Shown here piece after piece: positions 5,340-58,262 of a DNA stretch of 64,000 nucleotides. Where the stretch lies: contig NC_081354.1 in assembly GCF_030684315.1 (NCBI RefSeq), positions 133,153,314-133,217,313 of the forward strand, in the 5' to 3' direction. Below the pieces are notes generated by a model. The model did not search any database and was not told where the DNA came from. It saw only the letters and a program-made list of their open reading frames with translations. The DNA comes from Stegostoma tigrinum (lineage: Eukaryota). The position numbers and the translations under genes are program-made. Position 1 is the first letter of the stretch. Each line of letters starts with the position of its first letter.

Positions 5340-6900
5340 GAAATTAGAAAAGCAAAGAATGCATATTAGCATATGTTGCTCAAAAAATTGAGAAAGAAAC
5401 AATTTTTCCCCCAATATATAGAAAATATAAAGAAAGCAAGGTGATAACTAAAGCGGATCTTGGGTGCAATCTATGCACAGCAGGTATGCATATAGTTCTA
5501 TTTTGCTTACATAAAAGGAAGGAATAACGTAGACATTTCAGTCAGGACTTGTGTGGAATATCAGGTTAATTTCATGTAGTGAAGCTAAGTATTAAAAGGT
5601 TTAACATCTTCTGGAAGTGAATAAATCCTGTGTGTAGATGAAATGTATCGTTGGCTGTTGAGGAATGCCAGTGGCTCCAAACAACAACATCCAATCTCTG
5701 GCTGCAGGTGTGGTCAAAGTGGTCTGCAGGACTGTTGTCTTAAAAAGAAAGAGTCAGCATAGGTTTGGTTGGAATATTCTTAAAAATATTTGGGACAGGA
5801 TAAACCATCGTGTAGATGAAAACTTTAATCAAAGACAGTCAGCATTGATTTGTTAAGAAAGTGGTGTCTGATTAACATTGTTTTGAAAAGGCAGCAAGAA
5901 AGATAGATGGAAGTAGCGCATTTGAGATTTTATGTAAAATTTAGCCTTGATGACATAGGTCTTGAAAGTAAAAACCAATGCTACCAAAGTGACAAGATGT
6001 AAGTTTACTCCATGGGAAGAAAGTCAAGGGCAATGATCAACAAGCCTGGAAACCTGTTTCCATTGGTGTTCTACTGCACTCAGTACTAGTTCCTTTGGCC
6101 TTTTATGATATATATTAGTAATTTGGGACTTGAATGTAGAGGGTATGGTTTAAGAAATTTGGAGATAGTACTAATGTTGACTGTGGTGAAAGAAGGTGAC
6201 AGATGTAGATTGCAGGAAGGTAGCACTGGAGACTGGTCAGATTATCGGAGCAGTGGAAAATTCAGTCTAAAACATGTAAGGTAATGCACCTGGGGAACGC
6301 TAACAGCGCATTGGGATACCTAATAAATCATGGCATATGTTTTATTCTTCTCAATGTATATCACATGCACAGATCCCTGAAAGTGGATCAGAAGGCATAT
6401 TGGGATGCTTTAGAGGAACAGGAAAGCTGAAATTTTCGTAAGGGTCTCGACCTGAAACGTCAGCTTTCCTGCTGTTCTGATGCTGCCCAGTCTGCTGTGT
6501 TCCTCCAGCTCCACACTGTCATACCTCTGATTCTGGTGTCAGCAGTTCTTACTATCTCATGTGGGATGCTTTGCTTGATTAGCCAAAACACAGAATATGT
6601 GTGCAACAAAGTTATGCTGAATTGAATAAAACTGTAGTTAGAGCACAGCCTGGTATCACATGCCATTCTTGTTACTTGTAATGAAGATTCAGAGGAGATG
6701 TACGATAATGTTGACTAGATCACTTTAATTTTGGGTATATTAAATAGGTTTGAAGGAAGAAAGCCGAAGGGGTGACCTGGGGGTATTGGGCCTTATGGAA
6801 GATTTTCATAAAATGGATTTAAAGATAATGTTTGCTGTGGTATGGAAGAGTACATCTAAAGGCTTTCGCTTATAATACTGTCATCCTGAAATCCCATTAC
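5340..6900 (+). mobile_element. Heavily decayed CR1-type LINE ORF2 remnant
   Basis: Scattered CR1 RT/C-terminal nucleotide motifs (e.g. aagaaatttggagatagtacta, gtaatgcacctggg, agatccctgaaagtg, gaaggcatattgggatgcttt); no open frame. Confidence 0.55.
6412..6558 (+). mobile_element. Short PLE-tail insertion with 5' inversion and TSD
   Basis: Inverted AGGAAAGCTGA...TCAGCTTTCCT, then the PLE tail ending CAGTTCTTACTATCTC. TGGGATGCTTT occurs at both 6401-6411 and 6562-6572. Confidence 0.8.
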
Positions 6901-11442: not shown

Positions 11443-12754
11443 TAGTTCTTCTTTAATTCTCTTTATTTGATGGACATTCTAAAACTGCCTTAAAAGAAAT
11501 TTTCAAAATTTTATACTTTATTTAATGTATTGAGTTCATTATTATTGAAAAGACAGGCTTATTTTCAAAACTGTGTCTGCTTGTCTGTCTCTGTCATGTG
11601 GACAAATGCAAGAATGCCATATTTCCACATGGCGATATGCATTTGAGATTGAAGCAGAAGGTGGCTATTTAGCCCCACCAAGTCTGCTCTGCCGTTCAGT
11701 TAGATCATGGCTGATCTTTTTGTGTTATGAATTTCATATCCACTGACAAAAATCATTGATTCCCTATGGCCAAAAGGAATCTTGTATACCTTTTTCCCCA
11801 TAGAATTATTAAATTATCCTGTGTCCTTCGCCGTCTCAAGCAGAGCTCCAAAATTTTTCAACTATGAAAAGAAATTCCTGTTAATCTGTCCTAAAAGAGC
11901 AACCCTTAATTTTACTGAACTCTCCAGAACTGTAAACATGCTTTTCTCATTTACTTTGTGAAGACCGTTTGGGGTCATCTTACACTTCAAGCAAGCCATC
12001 TTTTTATCTTCTAAACACCAATGAAATCAAGCCTGGACTGACTGTCTTTCCCCAAAACAGTCTCCTCTGACCCCCTGTTTGGAGGGTTGGTGCAGACTTG
12101 ATTGATTGGATGGCCTCTATCTGCACTGTAGGGAGTCTTTTTCAATGAAGTAATCACTGGCGTTCAGTGTTTTTTTTCCCCCTGTTCCTTGCCTTACATT
12201 TGAAGATCTATTACGTTCCGTAGACTTGAATAGAAGTTTCTCGGTGATTCGTTCCTCCCAATTGCAGTACAATTTAGATAATGTTTCCAAAGCTCACTGT
12301 CCTGCGCTGTTTGCTGTGACTCCCACTGGGCTCCAATCCTGAAGAACAGGCAAGGTTGCTTTTGCTTTCCTGCATGATTCATGAAATACTTGAAGTCTCT
12401 TTTAGTAATATGTTGTCTTAGCGAGAAAATTAAATTTATCTATAGTGGATTTACCATTAAATAACAAGCAAAAGCAAATAAACAAATGTGGCTGTTATTG
12501 GGGAATATAATGTCAAGAAATGGAATTATAGATTGATGTACACACCATTTCTCACCATGACACATCATAACTCCTGAGGAGCTATTCATCGATCAGTCAT
12601 TGTCAGTCAGTCTCAAATATTCCCAGATACAATTTGATTTGAACCTCCAATTACTTGAAAGATGTCATCTTCAGAATCCTCCTTTTAGATTTATTCTTAA
12701 ATAGGCACTGTTGGGAAGTCCAACATTCGTTGCACATCCATAATTACCTAAATC

Positions 12755-14272
12755 AGAGATAATAAAGTGTGAAGCTGGATGAACACAGCAAGCCAAGCAG
12801 CATCTCAGGAGCACAAAAGCTGACGTTTCGGGCCTAGGCCCTTCATCAGAGAGGGGGAAGGGGTGAGGGTTCTGGAATAAATAGGGAGAGAGGGGGAGAC
12901 GGACCAAAGATGGAGAGAAAAGAAGATAGGTGGGGAGGGAGGGAGGGAGCGGATAGGTCAGTCCAGGGAAGACTGACAGGTCAAGGAAGCGGGATGAGGT
13001 TAGTAGGTAGGAAATGAAGGTGCGGCTTGGGGTGAGAGGAAGAACAGGTTAGGGAGGCAGAGACAGGCTGGGCTGGTTTTGGGATGCAGTGGGGGGAAGG
13101 GATGAGCTGGGCTGGTTTTGCAATGCGGTGGGGGAAGGGGAGATTTTGAAGCTGGTGAAGTCCACATTGATACCATTGGGCTGCAGGGTTCCCAAGGAAT
13201 ATGAATTGCTGTTCCTGCAACCTTCGGGTGGCATCATTGTGGCACTGCAGGAGGCCCATGATGGACATGTCATCTAAAGAATGGGAGGGGGAGTTGAAAT
13301 GGTTCGCATCTGGGAGGTGCAGTTGTTTATTGCGAACCGAGCGGAGGTGTTCTGCAAAGCGGTCCCCAAGCCTCCGCTTGGTTTCCCCAATGTAGAGGAA
13401 GCCACACCGGGTACAGTGGATACAGTATACCACATTGGCAGATGTGCAGGTGAACCTCTGCTTAATATGAAAAGTCATCTTGGGGCCTGGGATAGGGGTG
13501 AAGGAGAAGGTGTGGGGGCAAGTGTAGCACTTCCTGCGGTTGCAGGGGAAGGTGCCCGGTGTGGTGGGGTTGGAGGGCAGTGTGGAGCAAACAAGGGAGT
13601 CACGGAGAGAGTGGTCTCTCCGGAAAGCAGACCAGGGTGGGGAAGGAAAAATCTCTTGGGTGGTGGGGTCGGAACAGTCCCTCTTCCGTACCTACACAGG
13701 CCCCAAACCCCACCTCTTCCTCCATTACATTGACTGTATCGGCGCCGCCTCTTGCTCCCCAGAGGAGCTCGAACAGTTCATCCACTTCACCAACACCTTC
13801 CACCCCAACCTTAAGTTCACCTGGGCCATCTCCAACACATCCCTCACCTTCCTGGACCTCTCAGTCTCCATCTCAGGCAACCAGCTTGTAACTGATGTCC
13901 ATTTCAAGCCCACCGACTCCCACAGCTACCTAGAATACACCTCCTCCCACCCACTGTCCTGCCAAAATTCCAATTCCTCTGCCTCCGTTGCATCTGCTCC
14001 CACGATGAGGCAATCAACTCCCGCACATCCCAGATGTCTAAGTTCTTCAAGGACCGCAACTTTCCCCCCCACAGTGGTCGAGAACACCCTTGACCGCCTC
14101 TCCCGCATTTCCCACAACACATCCCTCACACCCCGCCCCCTCCACAACCGCCCAAAGAGGATCCCCCTCGTTCTCTCACACCACCCCACCAACCTCCGGA
14201 TACAACGCATCATGCTCTGACACTTCCGCCATCTACAATCCGACCCCACCACCCAAGACATTTTTCCATCCC
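12755..14272 (-). mobile_element. Penelope-like retroelement, 5'-truncated, with inverted RT segment
   Basis: Minus strand 13673->12755: GIY-YIG (NVVYCIHCTRCGFLYIGETKRRLGDRFAEHLR...NHFN) plus a tail with a hammerhead. Plus strand 13674-14272: PLE RT/thumb (LFLHYID.IG...FTNTFHPNLKFT...FLDL...KPTDSHSYLEYTSSHP). Confidence 0.92.
12818..12853 (-). ncRNA. Minimal type-I hammerhead ribozyme motif in PLE tail
   Basis: Minus strand reads CT-CTGATGA-A-GGGC-CTAG-GCCC-GAAAC-GTC-AG: intact core, 4-bp helix II, ACGT palindrome at helix III, GUC cleavage triplet; helix I only ~2 bp. Confidence 0.75.
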
Positions 14273-15817: not shown

Positions 15818-15952
15818 AGATACAAAAACAGTGGACGTTAGAAATCTGAAATAAAAGCAGAAAAATGCCGGAGAAGTGTTTAAATCTGTTTCTCTCTCCT
15901 CAGATGCTGTAAGATCTGTTGAGTTTCTCCAGCATTTCCTAATTTTATATCT
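15818..15952. mobile_element. PLE-tail fragments joined in inverted orientation
   Basis: gaaatctgaaataaaagcagaaaaatgccggagaa (tail, minus) is followed by cagatgctgtaagatctgttgagtttctccagcattt (tail, plus). Confidence 0.6.
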
Positions 15953-22049: not shown

Positions 22050-24160
22050 AAGGGTGCAGAATGTATGCTGAGTGGGGGATTTCAGTATCCATCACTAAGA
22101 GTGGCTTGGCAACGCAACTACTGTCTGAACTGGATAAGTCTTAAAGGCATAGCTGTTAGACTGTGTCTGCAGCAGGTTGTGAAGGAACTAATAAGAGGGG
22201 AAAACATACTTTACCTCATCCTCACCAATCTACCAGTTGCAGATACATCTATCCACAACAGTATTGGTAAAAGTGAACACCGCAACTTCTTGCAGAGTCT
22301 AAGTTCCATCTTCATATTGAATATGCACCCTATCATGATGTGTAACACTAATGTTGTGCTAAATGGAAAAGACTTTTTGCTCTTACTGAGCAACTCAAGT
22401 CTGGCATACATGATGTAGTACAACACAATCTGCTGCCTAATGGCCTGGCGTATCCCAGAAAATGTCATGACCGTCAAGCCAGGGGATCAGCACTACATCA
22501 GTGAAGAGTATAGGAGGGAATGTCGGCAGCAGCATCAGGTATACTTGAAAATGAGTTGTCAACCTGGTTAAGCTACAAAACAGGGTTCACTGTGTGCCAA
22601 ACAACACAATTTGCAAACGGTAGACATGGTAAAATGCTTCCACAACCAACAGATCTATGCTGTGCAGCCTTGCCACACTCAATTGTGAAATGAGATGGGC
22701 ATTCAAACAACTTGCTCAGAGGAGGCTGCACAAATGTCCCCATCCTGTATGCTCAGTCTTTGTTCTGCCAGACTCACTCAGCTCCTGATGTCATTTTCCA
22801 TGTTTGGATCAAGGTTGGACAAAAAGAGCTGAATTTCAGAGGCAGGAGTGACTGTCTTTGACATCAAGGCCACATTTGACTAAGGAGCCCTAGCGAAACT
22901 GGAGCCATTGGGGAACGGAGGTGATGGGGGAAGGTTGTGGTCATATCTCTCTGAAAGGTACATAGTTGTGGTTGTTGGACGTCAGCCATGTCAGCTGGAG
23001 GAAATCTCTGCAGACATTGCTCAGACTGTATATTTTCTCGTCAAGCTGTTTAGACATGTTCTTACACATTTCCGTAGTGGGTGGGACTTGAACCTGGGTC
23101 TGCTCGTTTAAAGGTAAGGACACTGTCACTGCATCACAAGAGCCACTCATTCCTTGGTGCCCTAAGGTCATCTTCGCCTGCATTAGTGACCTTCTTTTCA
23201 GCACAATATCAGAAATGGGATTTTTGCTGCTGATTGCACAATGGTCAGCACCATTTGTGACTCTTCAAATACTGAAGTAGTCCAAGTCCAAATATAGCAA
23301 GACCTGGATCGTTACCAGACATGAGTTGAGAAATGTCTCCAGTGTCAGGCAATGTCACATCATAAAAAGTGATTTTAACCTATACTGACATTCGTGGACA
23401 TTGCTGTCACTGCTCCACCATCAGTATTCTGGAGTTTACCATTGAACTGAAACAGAACAGGACAACTATATAACTATTGTGGCTGGAAGAGCATTTCAGT
23501 GGCTAGGAATCCTGAAGTGAGTAACTCACCACCTGGACCATCACTGAAAGCCTCCCCACCATCCACAAGGCACAAGTCAAGGATGTAGTGGAATACTCCC
23601 CCACTTGCCTAGTTGAGTACAACTCCAGCAAAAACTGAGAACACAGTGTGGAGCTGGAGGAACACAGCAGGTCAGGTAGCATCAGAGGAGCAGGAAAGTT
23701 GACGTTTTGGGTCGGGAGCCCTCTGGTAATCCAGCATTGGCAGTTCTTACTATCTCCAACAAAGCTGAAGCGTGACACCACCTAAAACAAAACAAAACCT
23801 GCTGATGGACACCACATGCGCAAACACTCTCAATCTCACTACGATGCTCAGTAGCAGCAGTGTGTACCATCTACAAGGGTCATTGTAGAAATTCACTCAG
23901 GCTGTCTGACCACCATTTCCAAAGCCATGACCGCTACCATCTATGTTGACAAAGACAGAAAATACATGGGAACATCACTTCCTACCAATATCTTTTACAA
24001 GGCACTCTTATCTTGATTTGGAGCCGTACCACACTTCCTCCTTTGGTACATCAAAGCTCCGGAACTTAGTGTGCTGATGCAAATTGCAGTATTGACGTTA
24101 AATATCAGAAGTCTCCAACATGTGCAGATCAAGGGCTGCTCATATCCCCATGAATGCTTT
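22050..24160 (+). mobile_element. LINE family B (APE-type, CR1/L2-group) decayed ORF2 with nested SINE (~23030-23140) and PLE tail (23637-23756)
   Basis: RGENILYLILTNLPVADTSIH (APE motif); homologous in opposite orientation to 28170-32690. Confidence 0.7.
23637..23756 (+). mobile_element. Short PLE-tail insertion with 5' inversion
   Basis: 23637-23722 is the antisense internal tail including gacgttttgggtc; 23723-23756 is the sense extreme 3' end CAGTTCTTACTATCTC. Imperfect TSD ctccagcaaaaactga / ctccaacaaagctga. Confidence 0.7.
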
Positions 24161-25353: not shown

Positions 25354-26017
25354 CATTGAACAGCACAACACCGTACAGGCCCTTTGGCCCACGATGTTAA
25401 GCCGACCTATTATCCTACTCTAAGATCAGGCTAACCTGCATGTCCTTCATTTTTCTATCTTCCATGTGCCTTTCCAAGAGTTGCTTAAATGTTACTAATG
25501 TATCTGACTCCACTACCTCTGCTGGCAGTGACTTACACACACCCACCACTCTCTGTGTGAAGAACCTACCTCTGACATCTCCCCAATACCTTCCTCCAAT
25601 CACCTTAAAATTATGCCCCCTCATAATAGTCATTTCCATCCTGGAAAAAAGTCTCCTGTATGGGTTGATTCGAAAAAATAGGTATAATAATCCCCTAAAT
25701 GCCTAGCACAGGAATTTCCCTCTTTTTATTTTTTTCCCAGGGCGGAAATGACTATTATGCTGGGACATAATTTTAGGGTGATTGGAGGAAGGTATAGGGG
25801 AGATGTCAGAGGTAGGTTCTTTCTACGCGCCCACCACTGTGTAATGTGCTGCCGTCAGTGGTGGGTGGAGTCAGATACGTTAGAGACATTTAAGCAACTT
25901 GTGGATAGGCACATGGATGATAGTATAATGTAGGGTATGCAGTGTAGTTTAGTCTTAGTACGATAATAGGTCAGCACAACATCTAGGGGCGAAGGGCCTG
26001 TACTGTACTGTTCTATG
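25354..26017. mobile_element. Divergent inverted pair of CR1 3' ends
   Basis: 25354-25654 (minus) and 25731-26017 (plus) both encode EMTIM.GHNF.VIGGRY.GDVRGRFF and end in CR1 tails pointing outward. Confidence 0.85.
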
Positions 26018-31715: not shown

Positions 31716-32070
31716 GGGCGGCACGGGGCTCAGTGGTTAGCACTGCAGCCTCACAGCGCCAGGGACCCAGGTTCGATNNNNNNNNNNNNNNNNNNNNNNN
31801 NNNNNNNNNNNNNNNNNNNNNNNNNNNNNNNNNNNNNNNNNNNNNNNNNNNNNNNNNNNNNNNNNNNNNNNNNNNNNNNNNNNNNNNNNNNNNNNNNNNN
31901 NNNNNNNNNNNNNNNNNNNNNNNNNNTAGGTGGATTGGCCATGCTACATTGCCCGTAGTGTTCAGGGGTGAGTGGGTTATAGGTGTATGCGTCTGGGTGC
32001 GATTCTTCAAGGGGCGGTGTGGACTTGTTGGGCTGAAGGGCCTGTTTCCACACTGTAGGGAGTCTAATCT
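31716..32070 (+). mobile_element. HE1-like V-SINE containing an assembly gap (N at 31778-31926)
   Basis: ggcacggggctcagtggttagcactgcagcctcacagcgccagggacccaggttcgat (A/B boxes); the 3' half matches 58429-58577. Confidence 0.85.
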
Positions 32071-42009: not shown

Positions 42010-42235
42010 AAAGAACAGATTCTGAAGATCTGAAATAAAAACAGAAATTGCTGCAGAAATTCAGTAAGCCTGACAACATCTGTAGGGAGAAAGCAAAGTT
42101 AATATTTTGAGTCCAGTGACCCTTTTTTAGAGCTGATAATAGCTAGGAAAAGTTGGTATTTCTGATGACAAGGAGTGAACGAGTTTAGTGGATGGTGGAA
42201 GGAGTGTACAGGTAGGTGGAGACAAAGTCTGTTAA
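42010..42235 (-). mobile_element. PLE tail (family B) with degenerate hammerhead
   Basis: aaagttaatattttgagtccagtgacccttttttagagctg is the antisense of the 500-540 type motif. Confidence 0.6.
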
Positions 42236-42535: not shown

Positions 42536-42679
42536 CAAGCAAACAAAAACAGAAATTGCTGGAAAGGCTGAAGTCTAGCAACATGTGACCCTTCCTCAGA
42601 ACAGATGCTGCCAGAGCTGCTGAGCTTTTCCAGTAATTTCTCTTCTTATTTTTGATGTACAGCAGTTCTTTCCCTTTTT
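42536..42679 (+). mobile_element. Short PLE-tail insertion with 5' inversion and TSD
   Basis: Antisense tail including gtgacccttcctcagaac, then sense acagatgctgccagagctgctgagcttttccag. AAGAATTG occurs at 42528-42535 and 42680-42687. Confidence 0.7.
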
Positions 42680-44623: not shown

Positions 44624-45043
<420 letters not shown>

Positions 45044-45719
45044 TAACATCAAAAAATAAAATGATCAATTTTCATGCTAATGGTTAGGTTTTGTGTGCAA
45101 AGAATGTCTTAGTGGTTTTGGTAATAAAGCACCTGAATATTGCTCAACAAAGATGTGTTTCATTGAAATCTTTTGTCCTTCTTTCATCAGGATAGTTCAT
45201 CAGGATAATTTGGTATTTCTTGTAAATTGTCCAGGCAAGATTGAGACAAAAATCTTCGACAAAATGTCTTTTTGCAGCAATACTTAAATATTTGTGAATT
45301 AGATGACACGAGGTTATAGCGCAACAGGTTTATATGAAGTGACAAGCTTTCAGAGCATTGCCCGTTCATCGGGTGAATGAATCAGTAAGATGAAGGCTGG
45401 TCTGGTTGTCGTCTGAACTCCAATTTCTAGCACACGTTTCATGACATGTGATTTCCTTGCCTATCAAAAATCTAAATCCACCTTGAATAGATTCACCTAC
45501 CTACCTTCACTGTTTTCTCAATGTCATAATCTAATGATCCTTTGAGAGGAAAGAACACTTCTTGAAATTGAGACCTTTTGTTCTAATCTTCGTCTACAAG
45601 GGGCAACATTCTCTCAATATACACCTTTGCTAGCAGTCTTCAGGGTCTTGTATGGATCAATTTAACATTCTTTTAAACTTCATTAGGTAAATGCCAAGCT
45701 GTTCAACCTCATAGTCGGG

Positions 45720-47332: not shown

Positions 47333-47364
47333 CTGAAGAAGGGTCAGGCTCCGAAACGTCAGCC
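47333..47364 (+). ncRNA. Minimal hammerhead motif in a short PLE tail (47325-47423), sense to VCP
   Basis: CTGAAGA-A-GGG-TCAGGC-TCC-GAAAC-GTC-AGCC: all core nucleotides present; helices I and II weak. Confidence 0.6.
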
Positions 47365-50425: not shown

Positions 50426-52853
50426 AACAGTACGAATCGCAAGTGGATTGCCTTACGTGGAAAGGCTGTACTGTTTAGTCTTGAATTTTCTGGACTTCAG
50501 AACTATCGGAGGTGACTTAATTAAAATATGCCAGGGATCCCTGATTTATGAACATTGAACATATGAACTCAGTCTCATACGTGGTTGTAATTTTAAAGAT
50601 CTGACATAAGAACATTTCCTGTAAAGGAGCTGGTCCTAAGTACGTTATCCTGCATTCCAACTTGCATACAAATTGATTTGTGAACTGACTACAGAACGGA
50701 ACATTCGCAGCCCAGAGACTGCCTGCCTGTATAAGATCCTGAAAGGACTGATCGAATAGAAGTTGAAAGGATGTTTCCTTTTGTGGGAGAACCTAGGACT
50801 AGGAGTTATAAATTTTAAAAATAACAGGGAGTCCATTTAAAACAGATGAGGGCACTGTTTTTTGAGTGTTGTGTGTTAGGAATTCCCTTCCTGAAAAGAT
50901 GCTGGAAGTAGAATCTTTAGATAACTTTAAGATAACATAGACTTTTGATGGCCAAGGCAATGAAAGATTATCAGGGGTTTACAGATTGTAGAGTTAAGAT
51001 TAGAATCGGTTTAGTTTAGCCACCATCTTATTGAATGGCAGAGCAGGCTTGATGGGCCACGTGGTCTGCACTTACTTGTATCTCCTTGAAACGTTTCTTT
51101 CAAAAAAAACTAAATCCATTTGATCTCAGTTATAGAAGCTTAGTTGTAGTGTGATCCAGGTTAGGAACTAAATATCGAGAATTATTTACTTTTGAATGGG
51201 GAAAAGGAAGAAGTTATAATATTAAGGGGTGGTCTAAAAACAGCACCCAGTGATCTTGGTTTGGAAAATTAGGATGCAGTTTGGCTGGAGATCAGATCAC
51301 AAATCTGTGCTGTATTATTTTGAAAAATGGAGACAAAATGTAGATTTAGAAGAACATGAAGCTGCCTCTTGCAGTTAGTTTGTTGTGATCCACCTTTCAT
51401 GACATGATGTGGTAGGATTTGAATGCCTTTACCTGATTTTATTAGTTGTGGGATTGCTTGTCTTAGTCTGTTGCAAGATTAACATGGTTGATTTTTATAG
51501 CTGCTTCATTTTTGGGTATCTCTTGACACTTCCTGGCATATTTCAATGCACTCCTCATCAAACTCCTGGCTTGATCATGATCAATTTGAGTGTTACGAGG
51601 TCACTGGTGATAAAGCAGAATGATGCTGTTGATGACCGCCCTAAATTATGAATTCCCAGTTTTGATTTATTTGATCTGTTCCGAATCATTGTGATGCCAA
51701 AACTTTTGACTTAATGCATTGGGACTTGGTGTCCACCTTCATGGTTGGGGTGAGTTTAGAGGTAGTGGGCTAGTAGTAATGTCACTGCACTAGCAATCCA
51801 GTCACAGATGGGGATGTGAATTTGATGTTCACCATGACAGATGGTAAATTTGTTGACCCTATGTCAAAACATTAAGTCTGGATTCAGTTCACAACTGGTG
51901 AAGTTTTCCAGCAGTTTGCTTTTTTATTTGTTGCATGATCACAGTTAGCTTTTAAATCTGGATTTTTACAGAAGTCAAATTTCACAACCTGTCATAATGG
52001 GATTCCAATGCACATCGTAGAACCATTGGTCTGAGACAGAATTTCCAGAAGTAGGGTCATCGACCTGTTGATTTTTCCAGCAATTTCTGCCGTTGCTTCA
52101 GATTTCTAACATCTGCAGTTCTTTGTTTTATTTTTGTGATAATGTCATCATTATCCATTGGTGAACGAGAGGTATTTACAAAAATGCTCTTTATGGAACA
52201 TAATTTGTAATCCTTATCTGGAGTGGCCTATGTGTGACTCCAGACTGCAGGAATGCCCTTAGCTGTCCTCTGAATTAGCCTTCGCAGGCCATTCAGGAAA
52301 TGGCTATTGAAGATGGGCAGCAAATGCTAGTCTTGCCAGTGATACAATCCCCAAAAATGAATTACAGATGATTTTGCTATAATGCATGTTTCGTTAACAC
52401 AAATTGACTGTAGTGCAACTGATGAACAGTGGATGCTGTTTGAAATGCAACTTTCTGCTGTTCAGTATAGCAATTTCCCTGTGATGTGATTTCCTGTGAC
52501 ACAAGGTCACACAAGAAAACAACTAGCACTGTTATAGGAGATCTACCTGTAAGTAAAATGCTAAGTAAATGAAATGAAGTGCATTTAGTAAGAACGTTTA
52601 CCACTGCATCATCAGATCTAATGAATCTGTCCTGCTGTTGGGATCTTTTGGGGATTGCAGTGTAATCAGAAGAGGGACTTGACAGGATTGTTGCTGAGAG
52701 GAGTTTTTCCGACTGGGTGGCTGAGATGTCGGGGTTCCGATAACAAATCAGTGAAATGTGCTGGGTGCCAATGCATAAGTTGAGCCAAAGGTGCCAGGAA
52801 TATCTTCAACATCGAATGGTTACAGTACAGAAAGGAGAGCAACTTGTCTACTG

Positions 52854-55131: not shown

Positions 55132-55317
<186 letters not shown>

Positions 55318-55739: not shown

Positions 55740-55800
55740 AATAAAATTGAATTGTTGCACCTCTAATAAAGAATTGTGTGTTGCCTGAATTTCATGTTTC
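55740..55800 (+). terminator. Candidate VCP polyadenylation signals
   Basis: AATAAA at 55740-55745 and 55765-55770, followed by GT/T-rich ttgtgtgttg...tgtttctt, ~430 nt after the stop. Confidence 0.65.
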
Positions 55801-57722
55801 TTCAGGGTAAAAATTTAATTGGTCTGTAGAAACATTTTGTGCTGTGGTTGCAATTTTTGATCTTGTGCAGAGTAGTATTTTCAATTTGTTGCATTACTGT
55901 CTCTTTTAATCTCTTAAGGGACAGTAACCATCAACTGAAAAAGAATTGGGTGTGATTTTGTGCAATAGTAAAAATGCTTCTAATACTCCATTACACATTT
56001 AACATTTTAGGCAGAACTGATGTGAATATTACGAACAAAATCCATTTTTAAACCATTGTGATTATTTGCAATATTTAATTTAATTAGATAAATTCTGCCA
56101 ACTTGCGTGTTTATCTGCCAATAAAACAACTTCTGATAACAGGGATGCGGTAACCTGGTAAGCTCCATTGGAACAATTGCCAGTGTCTGAATTTTCATTT
56201 CACAACATTGAATAATTTTTTAGGTTCGATTAATGGATTTATTGTATGTAAATGTAAAATCTCAATCTGGATTAATTGTTTCTCGGGGATAATTTAGTTT
56301 GCACCATAGATTAGCCTTTTAGCTAGTTTTGTTAATGTTGATGCTTGACTGAAATGTTCTCCATCAGTCTCCAGAACTCCTCCCTGTGAATTCTCTGTTC
56401 AAAATTCTATCAGTATTCTGTTCCTTCTGCTTCTTGCCTCTGACCATGGAGATGTCCACTGGCTGTCACCTCTCAACGTTTGAATTCAAAATCTTTACAT
56501 ATCTTTTTTTTATTGTTTGTGTTTGTAAGCAGGATTTCTACCAGGTGAGTAGTAAATTTATAGCAATGGAGATGGGGTAGCTTTTCCTTGCCTTTCATTT
56601 CAGGAAATGTGTTTATTTTCTTGATTTGGTACATGTGCAGCCATAGGGTCTGTGTTTGTTAGTGACTGCAATATGTACTAGCTGCAAAGTGTAAGGCAGC
56701 AAGTTGTGTGGTTCTGACAGCAGTTCACAAGTCTGCAACTTCCACTGCTAAGAAGGACAAGGACACCAAGAACGTGACGAGAATCACTTCCCAAGTTCTT
56801 ACTGAGTTGTGTCAGTGCCCAGTTGGACAAGGCTAATAGTTCCTCCATCTCTGAATAGAAGGAATTACTGCACTTCAAGAAGGTGATCACATTCTCAAGG
56901 GAGGCTGTTTACATACTGGGTTGCTTAACTCGTAACTTTGAATGCTAGATTAAATTCTGACGGTTAGTTATAAGCCTAGTAGTGTGTGTGTGTGTGTGCG
57001 CGCCATCAAGGGTGTTTATAGTCGATATGGCACACATGGGATCAGTTCCTTCATCATTCTTCCTATTCTGAAGCTAGAACTGTATACTGCAGTAAAATGC
57101 CAGAGTCCTAAATGCTTTTTTGAATTATGATGCAATACAATACAGTAATTTGTATTGAATTACATTAATTCAGCATTTCCTCTGTTCAGATTCGGATGTT
57201 GGACGCAAAATTTGGCAGTTATCAAAATAAGCAAGGCTCAGATATTATGATAAATCTTAACTGAAGTTGAAACTGAAAATTAAACTAAACTTTAATTTTG
57301 TTTAAGCTTCATATTCAGCTGAAGTTCCCCCACCCCCCCATCCCACTTTGCTCCATTTGTGGGGTACAAGCCAATGTCAGTGTTGGGGATATAAATGGAA
57401 AGAATTACTTATACCTCAAGATATCAGAATTGAGAACTCCTAAATTGACAGTATGGCCAGTTGTAGTTTTCAAGAAACAGGAGATGGGTCTAGATGAGAT
57501 GTAAATGGAACCCGTGCTTACAGATGTTAGAAGTAATGGGGAGGTAAGAGTGGAAATTAGATTCAAGTTGATTAGATTTTCTAGTTCATCCAAAATCAGA
57601 AAGTGGAACAGATGTAGTTATTAATGTACCAGGAAAAGAACAATGAGGGGCAACAGCAAAGTGGGATTGGATTAAAGGTTGTTCTGCATTTTCTATGACA
57701 AGGCAGGTACATTTAGGATTTA

Positions 57723-57861
57723 GAGATAATGGGAACTGCAGATGCTGGAGATTCCAAGATAATAAAATGTGAGGCTGGATGAACACAGCAGGCCAAGCAG
57801 CATCTCAGGAGCTCCTGAGATGCTGCTTGGCCTGCTGTGTTCATCCAGCCTCACATTTTAT
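57723..57861 (-). mobile_element. Young PLE-tail insertion forming a perfect palindrome, 15-bp TSD
   Basis: TACATTTAGGATTTA at 57708-57722 and 57862-57876; 57760-57863 is self-complementary with no mismatch. Confidence 0.92.
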
Positions 57862-58262
57862 TACATTTAGGATTTAAATGAGTTCCCATAGCAAGCCTTT
57901 TATTTGGGGGCAGGATGTGGCTTTTATAAAGTTGAGAGTATAGGTTCATTCATGTAGAGAAGGGTATTGAGAATGGTTGGGCCTTAGTTGGACCTTTTAT
58001 TGAATAAAGCTACAGCCTGATTCAGGATTAGAGTCTGAAGATTGGACATGCACAAAGAGAGGGCACTAGGACAAAGTTTCCACTTAGCACAGTAGCCATA
58101 ACCGTTTGGAGAGTTTGTACTTGCTGATTGGCATGTGAACTATTGATGCCTGGTTTCAGAAGTTGCAGTGGCAGGTGAAAATAGAGGGATCATAGGTTGT
58201 TGTTGTAGCTGAGTAAAGACTGGACAAGGATGACAATAACTTGAGAAAAAAATCAGTTTTGA

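Follow-up and report, generated by a model that had tools for sequence, protein, structure and literature searches.

The closest described systems are the complex insertions of EN+ Penelope-like elements (PLEs), in which, according to passages of PMC3846280 and PMC8557442, an inverted 5′-truncated copy is arranged head-to-head and a tail is found at one end. Passages of PMC8557442 and PMC8969392 give an inverted 5′-truncated copy with a tail of 30–40 bp at one end as typical of PLEs; a section of the former ascribes the tail to nuclease resolution and still calls the formation of the inverted structures undefined. Part of PMC3846280, by Arkhipova et al., interprets PLE junction palindromes as self-priming. 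Excerpts of Frangieh et al. 2024 (PMC11167929) report that the protein of an anole PLE, PAc (Poseidon, Anolis carolinensis), cuts and extends both target strands in vitro, using two internal start sites of reverse transcription between which the tail falls; the start sites are equal on both strands and a dimer is predicted. The portion of the 2026 retrozyme preprint 10.64898/2026.07.22.740005 that we consulted holds no passage on shark PLE palindromes. Additionally, a literature search with most subscription papers outside its coverage found no paper on palindromes of shark PLEs and none that combines Penelope, palindrome, cruciform and retrotransposon. In twin priming of L1, as Ostertag and Kazazian are said to have described it in 2001, the two pieces reportedly come from adjacent parts of one RNA and overlap little.

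The window, which is the whole 64,000-nt stretch of Stegostoma tigrinum DNA analyzed here, contains a perfect palindrome at 57760–57863 whose 52+52 nt arms are 100% complementary and are separated by a spacer of 0 nt. Matches of N runs aside, this is the sole perfect palindrome in the window with arms longer than 10 nt. When folded as DNA, the segment 57700–57885 reaches −73.8 kcal/mol (z −18), a value equaled by 0 of 200 shuffles. The arms meet head-to-head at GGAG/CTCC (57808–57815), and the GC at 57811–57812 can be read from either arm, a microhomology of 2 nt at the junction. Around the palindrome, the target site duplication (TSD) TACATTTAGGATTTA occurs at 57708–57722 and 57862–57876; it is exactly 15 bp, perfect and not extendable. 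The insert between the two copies is 57723–57861, or 139 bp, and the right palindrome arm ends in TA (57862–57863), bases common to the right TSD. A sequence-only reading of this DNA had claimed both an exact 104-bp self-complementarity with 52-bp arms and no loop and a 139-bp insert bounded by a perfect 15-bp TSD, and both were reproduced. We also agree with it that the arm is the tail of the PLE near 12755–12815, since 52 of 55 bases (94.5%) are identical between the palindrome arm and 12757–12811.

The insert is asymmetric, with 89 nt of the element on the left and 50–52 nt on the right. The long arm (57723–57811, minus strand) consists of the final 89 nt at the 3′ terminus of the PLE and runs to the outer 3′ terminus of the family. 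The short arm (57812–57863, plus strand) carries the PLE segment in sense and stops at arm position 50–52, which is 2–3 nt before the inner 3′ terminus at arm positions 54–55. The 37 nt at 57723–57759 (minus strand) are unpaired and cover the Penelope 'tail', which lies between the two 3′ termini of the family (57722 and 57757/57758).

A copy of the parent family is found at 12757–13675 on the minus strand, with a GIY-YIG region, a 3′ UTR, a minimal hammerhead and a 3′ end at the inner terminus. An inverted segment of the RT region of the same copy follows at 13676–14272 (plus strand) and overlaps the direct part by 34 nt. The GIY-YIG match of this copy (E 5.6e-4, 20.6 bits) is under the cut-off of 22.6, and over 159 residues the copy shares 89% identity with a whale-shark protein that has RT and GIY-YIG domains, which points to a shark host. 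None of the 14 protein hits is a named reference element. It matches the protein P0001 at 89% and 69%, and P0001 contains RVT_1 (below cut-off) and GIY-YIG (above cut-off); a relative of 889 aa, P0012, has RVT_1 above cut-off followed by GIY-YIG below cut-off. By homology to these proteins, the parent is predicted to encode an RT with a C-terminal GIY-YIG nuclease, the arrangement of an EN+ PLE. The putative minimal hammerhead motif CTGANGA...GAAACGTC occurs at 12849–12822 and 47333–47360, and this count of 2 in the window compares with 0.14 expected (50 shuffles, maximum 2). Rfam, searched over the whole window with E up to 1, gave 0 matches, hammerhead included. Minimal hammerheads of such kind are described for PLEs in a part of PMC4209133. 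An ATG lies within this motif, and the predicted cut of the parent would fall at +25 relative to it; the insert lacks the ribozyme because the palindrome centre lies ∼10 nt 3′ of that cut. We consider it very probable that the insert derives from a hammerhead-bearing RT+GIY-YIG Penelope-like element, whose truncated 3′ end it carries twice, head-to-head.

Contigs from four runs were aligned to 57100–58250 at 80% likeness; two of the runs, X1 and X2, are from the window's species and belong to one study, possibly the assembly's own source. The PLE family is abundant and young in this species, with 68,681 contigs matched in X1 (11,867 of them at ≥99%) and 76,957 in X2. When an 18-nt motif of the tail was compared with metagenomes, 32 loci were returned, 0 of 32 extended beyond 26 aligned bases, and all were chance matches.

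The locus shares with EN+ PLE complex insertions a truncated copy placed head-to-head, a palindrome at the junction, one side that is ∼37 nt longer and a TSD around the whole unit. Unlike them, it is only 139 bp long and has no coding part, and its arms overlap fully with neither loop nor mismatch. Its TSD of 15 bp compares with 8–10 bp in the rotifer PLE examples given in sections of PMC3846280 and PMC8557442. A hammerhead, a 30–40 bp tail at one end, 5′ truncation with head-to-head inversion, a TSD and an empty site were all found. On the features tested, the insert is a Penelope-like complex insertion; its layout is published and is nothing new to sharks. As a single locus it is of little weight, being a clean minimal case of a PLE pattern described since at least 2013.

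Several features are also held in common with PAc. In both, an ATG lies in the hammerhead, with the cut at +26 in PAc and predicted at +25 here, two 3′ termini delimit the tail, and the target is AT-rich (excerpts of PMC11167929). The termini here are at ∼+89 and ∼+125, compared with a main PAc start at +111–118, and the same excerpts do not describe head-to-head products for PAc. Compared with L1 twin priming, the locus is alike in that both target ends would prime, the 5′ part is inverted, the TSD is kept and the junction has microhomology. In L1, however, the inverted piece is upstream RNA, whereas here 52 of the same 89 nt are repeated; there is no poly(A), and the ends would be set by PLE start sites. 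The proposal that the palindrome is an extreme product of twin priming thus failed the L1-type test, as the arms overlap completely (52 of 89 nt). The copy at 23637, discussed below, fits L1-type twin priming better than the palindrome insert does. Like MITEs, the insert is short, non-coding, flanked by a TSD and able to form a hairpin, but it differs from them in its retrotransposon origin and in lacking terminal inverted repeats, as its left end has 37 unpaired nt.

The PLE family has two preferred 3′ termini, 35–36 nt apart. Among the positions listed (24 of 812) at which contigs run as loose ends into unrelated DNA, 57722 is represented by 674 contigs in X1 and 645 in X2, and 57757/57758 by 932+438 in X1 and 941+438 in X2. 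Each of the family copies in the window (n = 7) ends at one of the two termini: copies 2053, 12757, 23637 and 47332 have ends at arm positions 54–59, and copies 6412, 23637, 29640 and 57723 at arm positions 89–90. The asymmetry of the insert is the known Penelope tail, present on the left arm only. The heptamer AGATAAT (plus strand) occurs at both termini (57722–57730 and 57757–57763) and is a possible start or cut signal. The commonest joint listed connects the outer terminus 57722 to the inner terminus 57758 on the opposite strand (58 contigs in X1, 53 in X2), and four neighboring variants of it (57719–57725, 57754–57759) are represented by 5–21 contigs each. We take these joints to be tail-to-tail pairs, which may reflect insertion of an element into its own end. 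The joints listed for species B and species C included none of them.

In two related species the site is empty, bearing out the claim of a single PLE-tail insertion with a TSD. In a contig of species B, 57710 is joined to 57865, so that 154 bases are skipped (139+15) and a single copy of the target stands in place of the left TSD and its duplicate; in a contig of species C, 22 letters stand against 175 in the window. Differences in the flanks number 34 of 503 sites for species B and 48 of 571 for species C. In the window's species, contigs at single-copy depth cover 57100–57743 with 2 substitutions and 1 indel, and 57841–58250, right TSD included, with 0 differences. Both junctions of the insert, and the opposite orientation of its two ends, are confirmed by these same-species contigs. 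Among the matches listed, no contig of the locus crosses the centre, so that support for 57744–57840 comes from the window's assembly. Of the joints listed (15 of at least 89), none shows an empty site in the window's species.

The absence of mismatches had been taken as a sign of a recent event. The 0 mismatches among 100 arm sites (130 when the TSD is counted) set a 95% bound of 2.3–3.0% substitutions per site, which places the insertion in the last 68–89% of the branch that follows the separation from species B. This is a lineage-specific, fairly young insertion, and to this extent the claim stands; a very recent age does not follow from so loose a dating. The locus can be used as a presence/absence marker for the lineage of the window.

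Other copies in the window are also rearranged. Inversion is present in 4 of the 7 family copies, with differing junctions (6412, 12757/13676, 23637 and 57723), and in 3 of these 4 the arms overlap. The older copy at 6412–6561 has the outer terminus, an inverted arm with 27 nt of overlap and an 11-bp TSD; its inverted arm starts at neither terminus of the family. In another older copy, 23637–23756, an inverted arm runs from the inner terminus into the hammerhead and is accompanied by the tail alone (arm 53–89), within a degenerate TSD. A related tail family has left a head-to-head stub at 42536–42679 with an 8-bp TSD, and the self-complementarity of this stub exceeds that of 200 of 200 shuffles. 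At 15818, as a hairpin, 112 of 200 shuffles were as good, which is not significant. The suggestion that shark PLEs routinely generate hairpins is right in that inversions are common (4 of 7 family copies, plus the hairpin of the related family at 42536), but 15818 does not bear it out. Hairpins at 23637, 2053, 47332 and 29640 were likewise not significant (93, 159, 22 and 80 of 200 shuffles as good, respectively), and the TSD candidates at 12738/14271, 15809, 47312 and 29631 are too weak to be counted.

The 5′ limits of the short copies were compared with the predicted hammerhead cut. Older short copies at 2053, 6440, 23722 and 47332 have their 5′ limit at arm −30 to −38, which is 5′ of hammerhead stem II; a pause could account for these limits, or they may simply show where alignment gives out. 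For the copies in the window, we rejected the idea that the 5′ limit is usually set by hammerhead cleavage, as the other five short copies extend past the cut (−30 to −50, compared with −10).

For the origin of the palindrome, we give about even chances to an explanation in which cDNA synthesis was primed from each of the two nicked strands of the target, at two start sites, and the cDNAs were joined via the 2-base GC overlap. The GIY-YIG nuclease would cut the two target strands 15 bp apart. One target 3′ end would then prime at the outer start site, with 89 nt copied, and the other would prime at or beside the inner start site via the TA match, with 50–52 nt copied. The second cDNA would probably be templated by another RNA of a dimeric complex, because an identical stretch of 52 nt is present in the two cDNAs. 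Each would halt ∼10 nt short of the hammerhead cut, anneal by GC and be filled in, and the palindrome would be a by-product of integration. Each arm reads as antisense cDNA primed by a 3′ end of the target. The end of the long arm coincides with the outer terminus and that of the short arm lies 2–3 nt from the inner one; by arithmetic, a stop placed at random over 89 positions would fall within 3 nt in ∼8% of cases. Dual priming is also favored by the in vitro behavior of the PAc protein described above (excerpts of PMC11167929) and by the RT and GIY-YIG homology and hammerhead of the parent. The copy at 23637 is as a non-overlapping form of the same dual-priming event would give, with two primers on one RNA. 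Against dual priming, the short arm misses the inner terminus by 2–3 nt, the second arm lies at neither terminus in 2 of the 4 inverted copies (6412 and 12757/13676), and full overlap of the arms needs two RNAs or strand displacement.

Alternatively, the cDNA begun at the outer site could have folded, copied its own last 50 nt and been joined to the second target nick, or cut there, close to the tail boundary. We regard such self-priming as possible, with the balance somewhat against it. If the cDNA stopped at the hammerhead cut, it could fold into an AGC/GCT stem of 3 bp closing a loop of 6 nt beside this centre, and an 8-nt loss between two AGC microrepeats would leave a loopless centre. The AGC/GCT stem is present in the parent sequence, one RNA suffices, and perfect arms follow directly. 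Overlapping arms with internal ends, as at 6412 and at 13640–13673/14239–14272, also favor a fold-back, as does a passage of PMC3846280 for PLE junction palindromes. Inverted duplications of L1 with 2-bp junction homology are ascribed to self-annealing of small hairpins in parts of bioRxiv 2024.12.14.628481 and PMC10191854, and those duplications involve genomic flank DNA. However, a zero-loop centre would not be hairpin-primed directly and would need an extra deletion step. The end of the short arm beside the inner terminus is unexpected unless a nuclease cuts there. A fold-back trimmed afterwards at the tail boundary would have identical ends, which weakens the case for dual priming. A fold-back from the cut site sits poorly with the five short copies that extend past it and with the dispensability of hammerhead cleavage in vitro noted in PMC11167929 (excerpts). 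The value of the locus lies in the population of its family, as arm ends and junctions collected genome-wide could separate dual priming from self-priming. We think it improbable that each target strand uses its own start site (two RNAs, two primers) and that, in addition, hammerhead cleavage determines where the centres of fold-backs cluster; if true, the shark stubs, which number in the thousands, would form the first in vivo record tying the ribozyme cut and the tail to PLE inversions.

Contigs of the family bear on whether the palindrome instead moves as a unit with this centre, as a fixed non-autonomous, MITE-like element. Contigs from a few other loci also run through this centre (3 ungapped contigs with 10–16 other letters, plus 2 gapped ones), but these were selected from a table of longest matches, from which enrichment cannot be read, and they are 10–16% diverged. 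Far more contigs part from the reference there and read on into the hammerhead (loose ends: 457+772 in X1, 555+836 in X2), and at least 8 different head-to-head skips occur among the 15 joints listed, such as 57760>57826, 57773>57822, 57787>57830 and 57804>57841. Together with the absence of a second copy from the window and with termini that are not inverted repeats of each other, this largely refutes a fixed element, which we consider very unlikely. The differing joints and the contigs continuing into the hammerhead also bear out the earlier expectation of de novo palindromes with varying centres. We give as little credence to an assembly artefact at the interior or centre, in which the true allele of a repeat-rich, gapped assembly would have longer arms or a spacer. 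The interior is unspanned by locus contigs among the matches listed and the window holds an N gap of 149 bases, yet both TSD junctions and the opposite orientations are matched at single-copy depth, short-word assembly would be expected to break within a repeat, and the insert is just 139 bp. It is just as hard to credit two separate insertions at one site, or older arms that became identical through later gene conversion. Ends of the family do adjoin one another in tail-to-tail joints, and homogenisation of palindrome arms is known, but one perfect TSD pair encloses both arms with no second duplication, and the two arms share their 3 differences from the 12757 copy.

The palindrome lies ∼2.4 kb past the stop codon (55315–55317) of a gene with a Pfam AAA match, which we take to be VCP/p97 from its C-terminal DDDLYG. 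Exons of this AAA ATPase are at 44624–45046 and 55210–55317, and several PLE stubs lie near or within the gene region. AATAAA signals at 55740, 55765 and 56120 all fall between the stop codon and the palindrome, which is probably outside the VCP mRNA because it lies behind these three signals. The insert itself brings an AATAAA hexamer (57761–57766, plus strand) downstream of VCP, plus its mirror on the minus strand. Like any repeat of this type, a perfect 52-bp stem could form a cruciform in the DNA or, if it were transcribed, a folded RNA. The suggested roles as a cruciform, a Dicer/ADAR substrate or a seed of MITEs are without support, given a site behind three AATAAA signals after VCP and termini that are not inverted repeats.

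Another inverted repeat in the window, at 25362–26014, is imperfect, with three arm pairs of 58–94 nt that are 79–91% complementary and a centre of 80 nt. It is made up of two 3′ ends from a LINE-like repeat, presumably CR1/L2-like, that stand head-to-head, and no TSD was found around it. The scaffold gap of 149 N is at 31778–31926. A second, more distant PLE occupies 2–600, with a GIY-YIG region (2–282) that is 44–50% identical to shark PLE proteins. Its tail, at ∼496–600, is akin to the stubs at 15818, 42022–42093, 42536, 51890 and 52084–52123.
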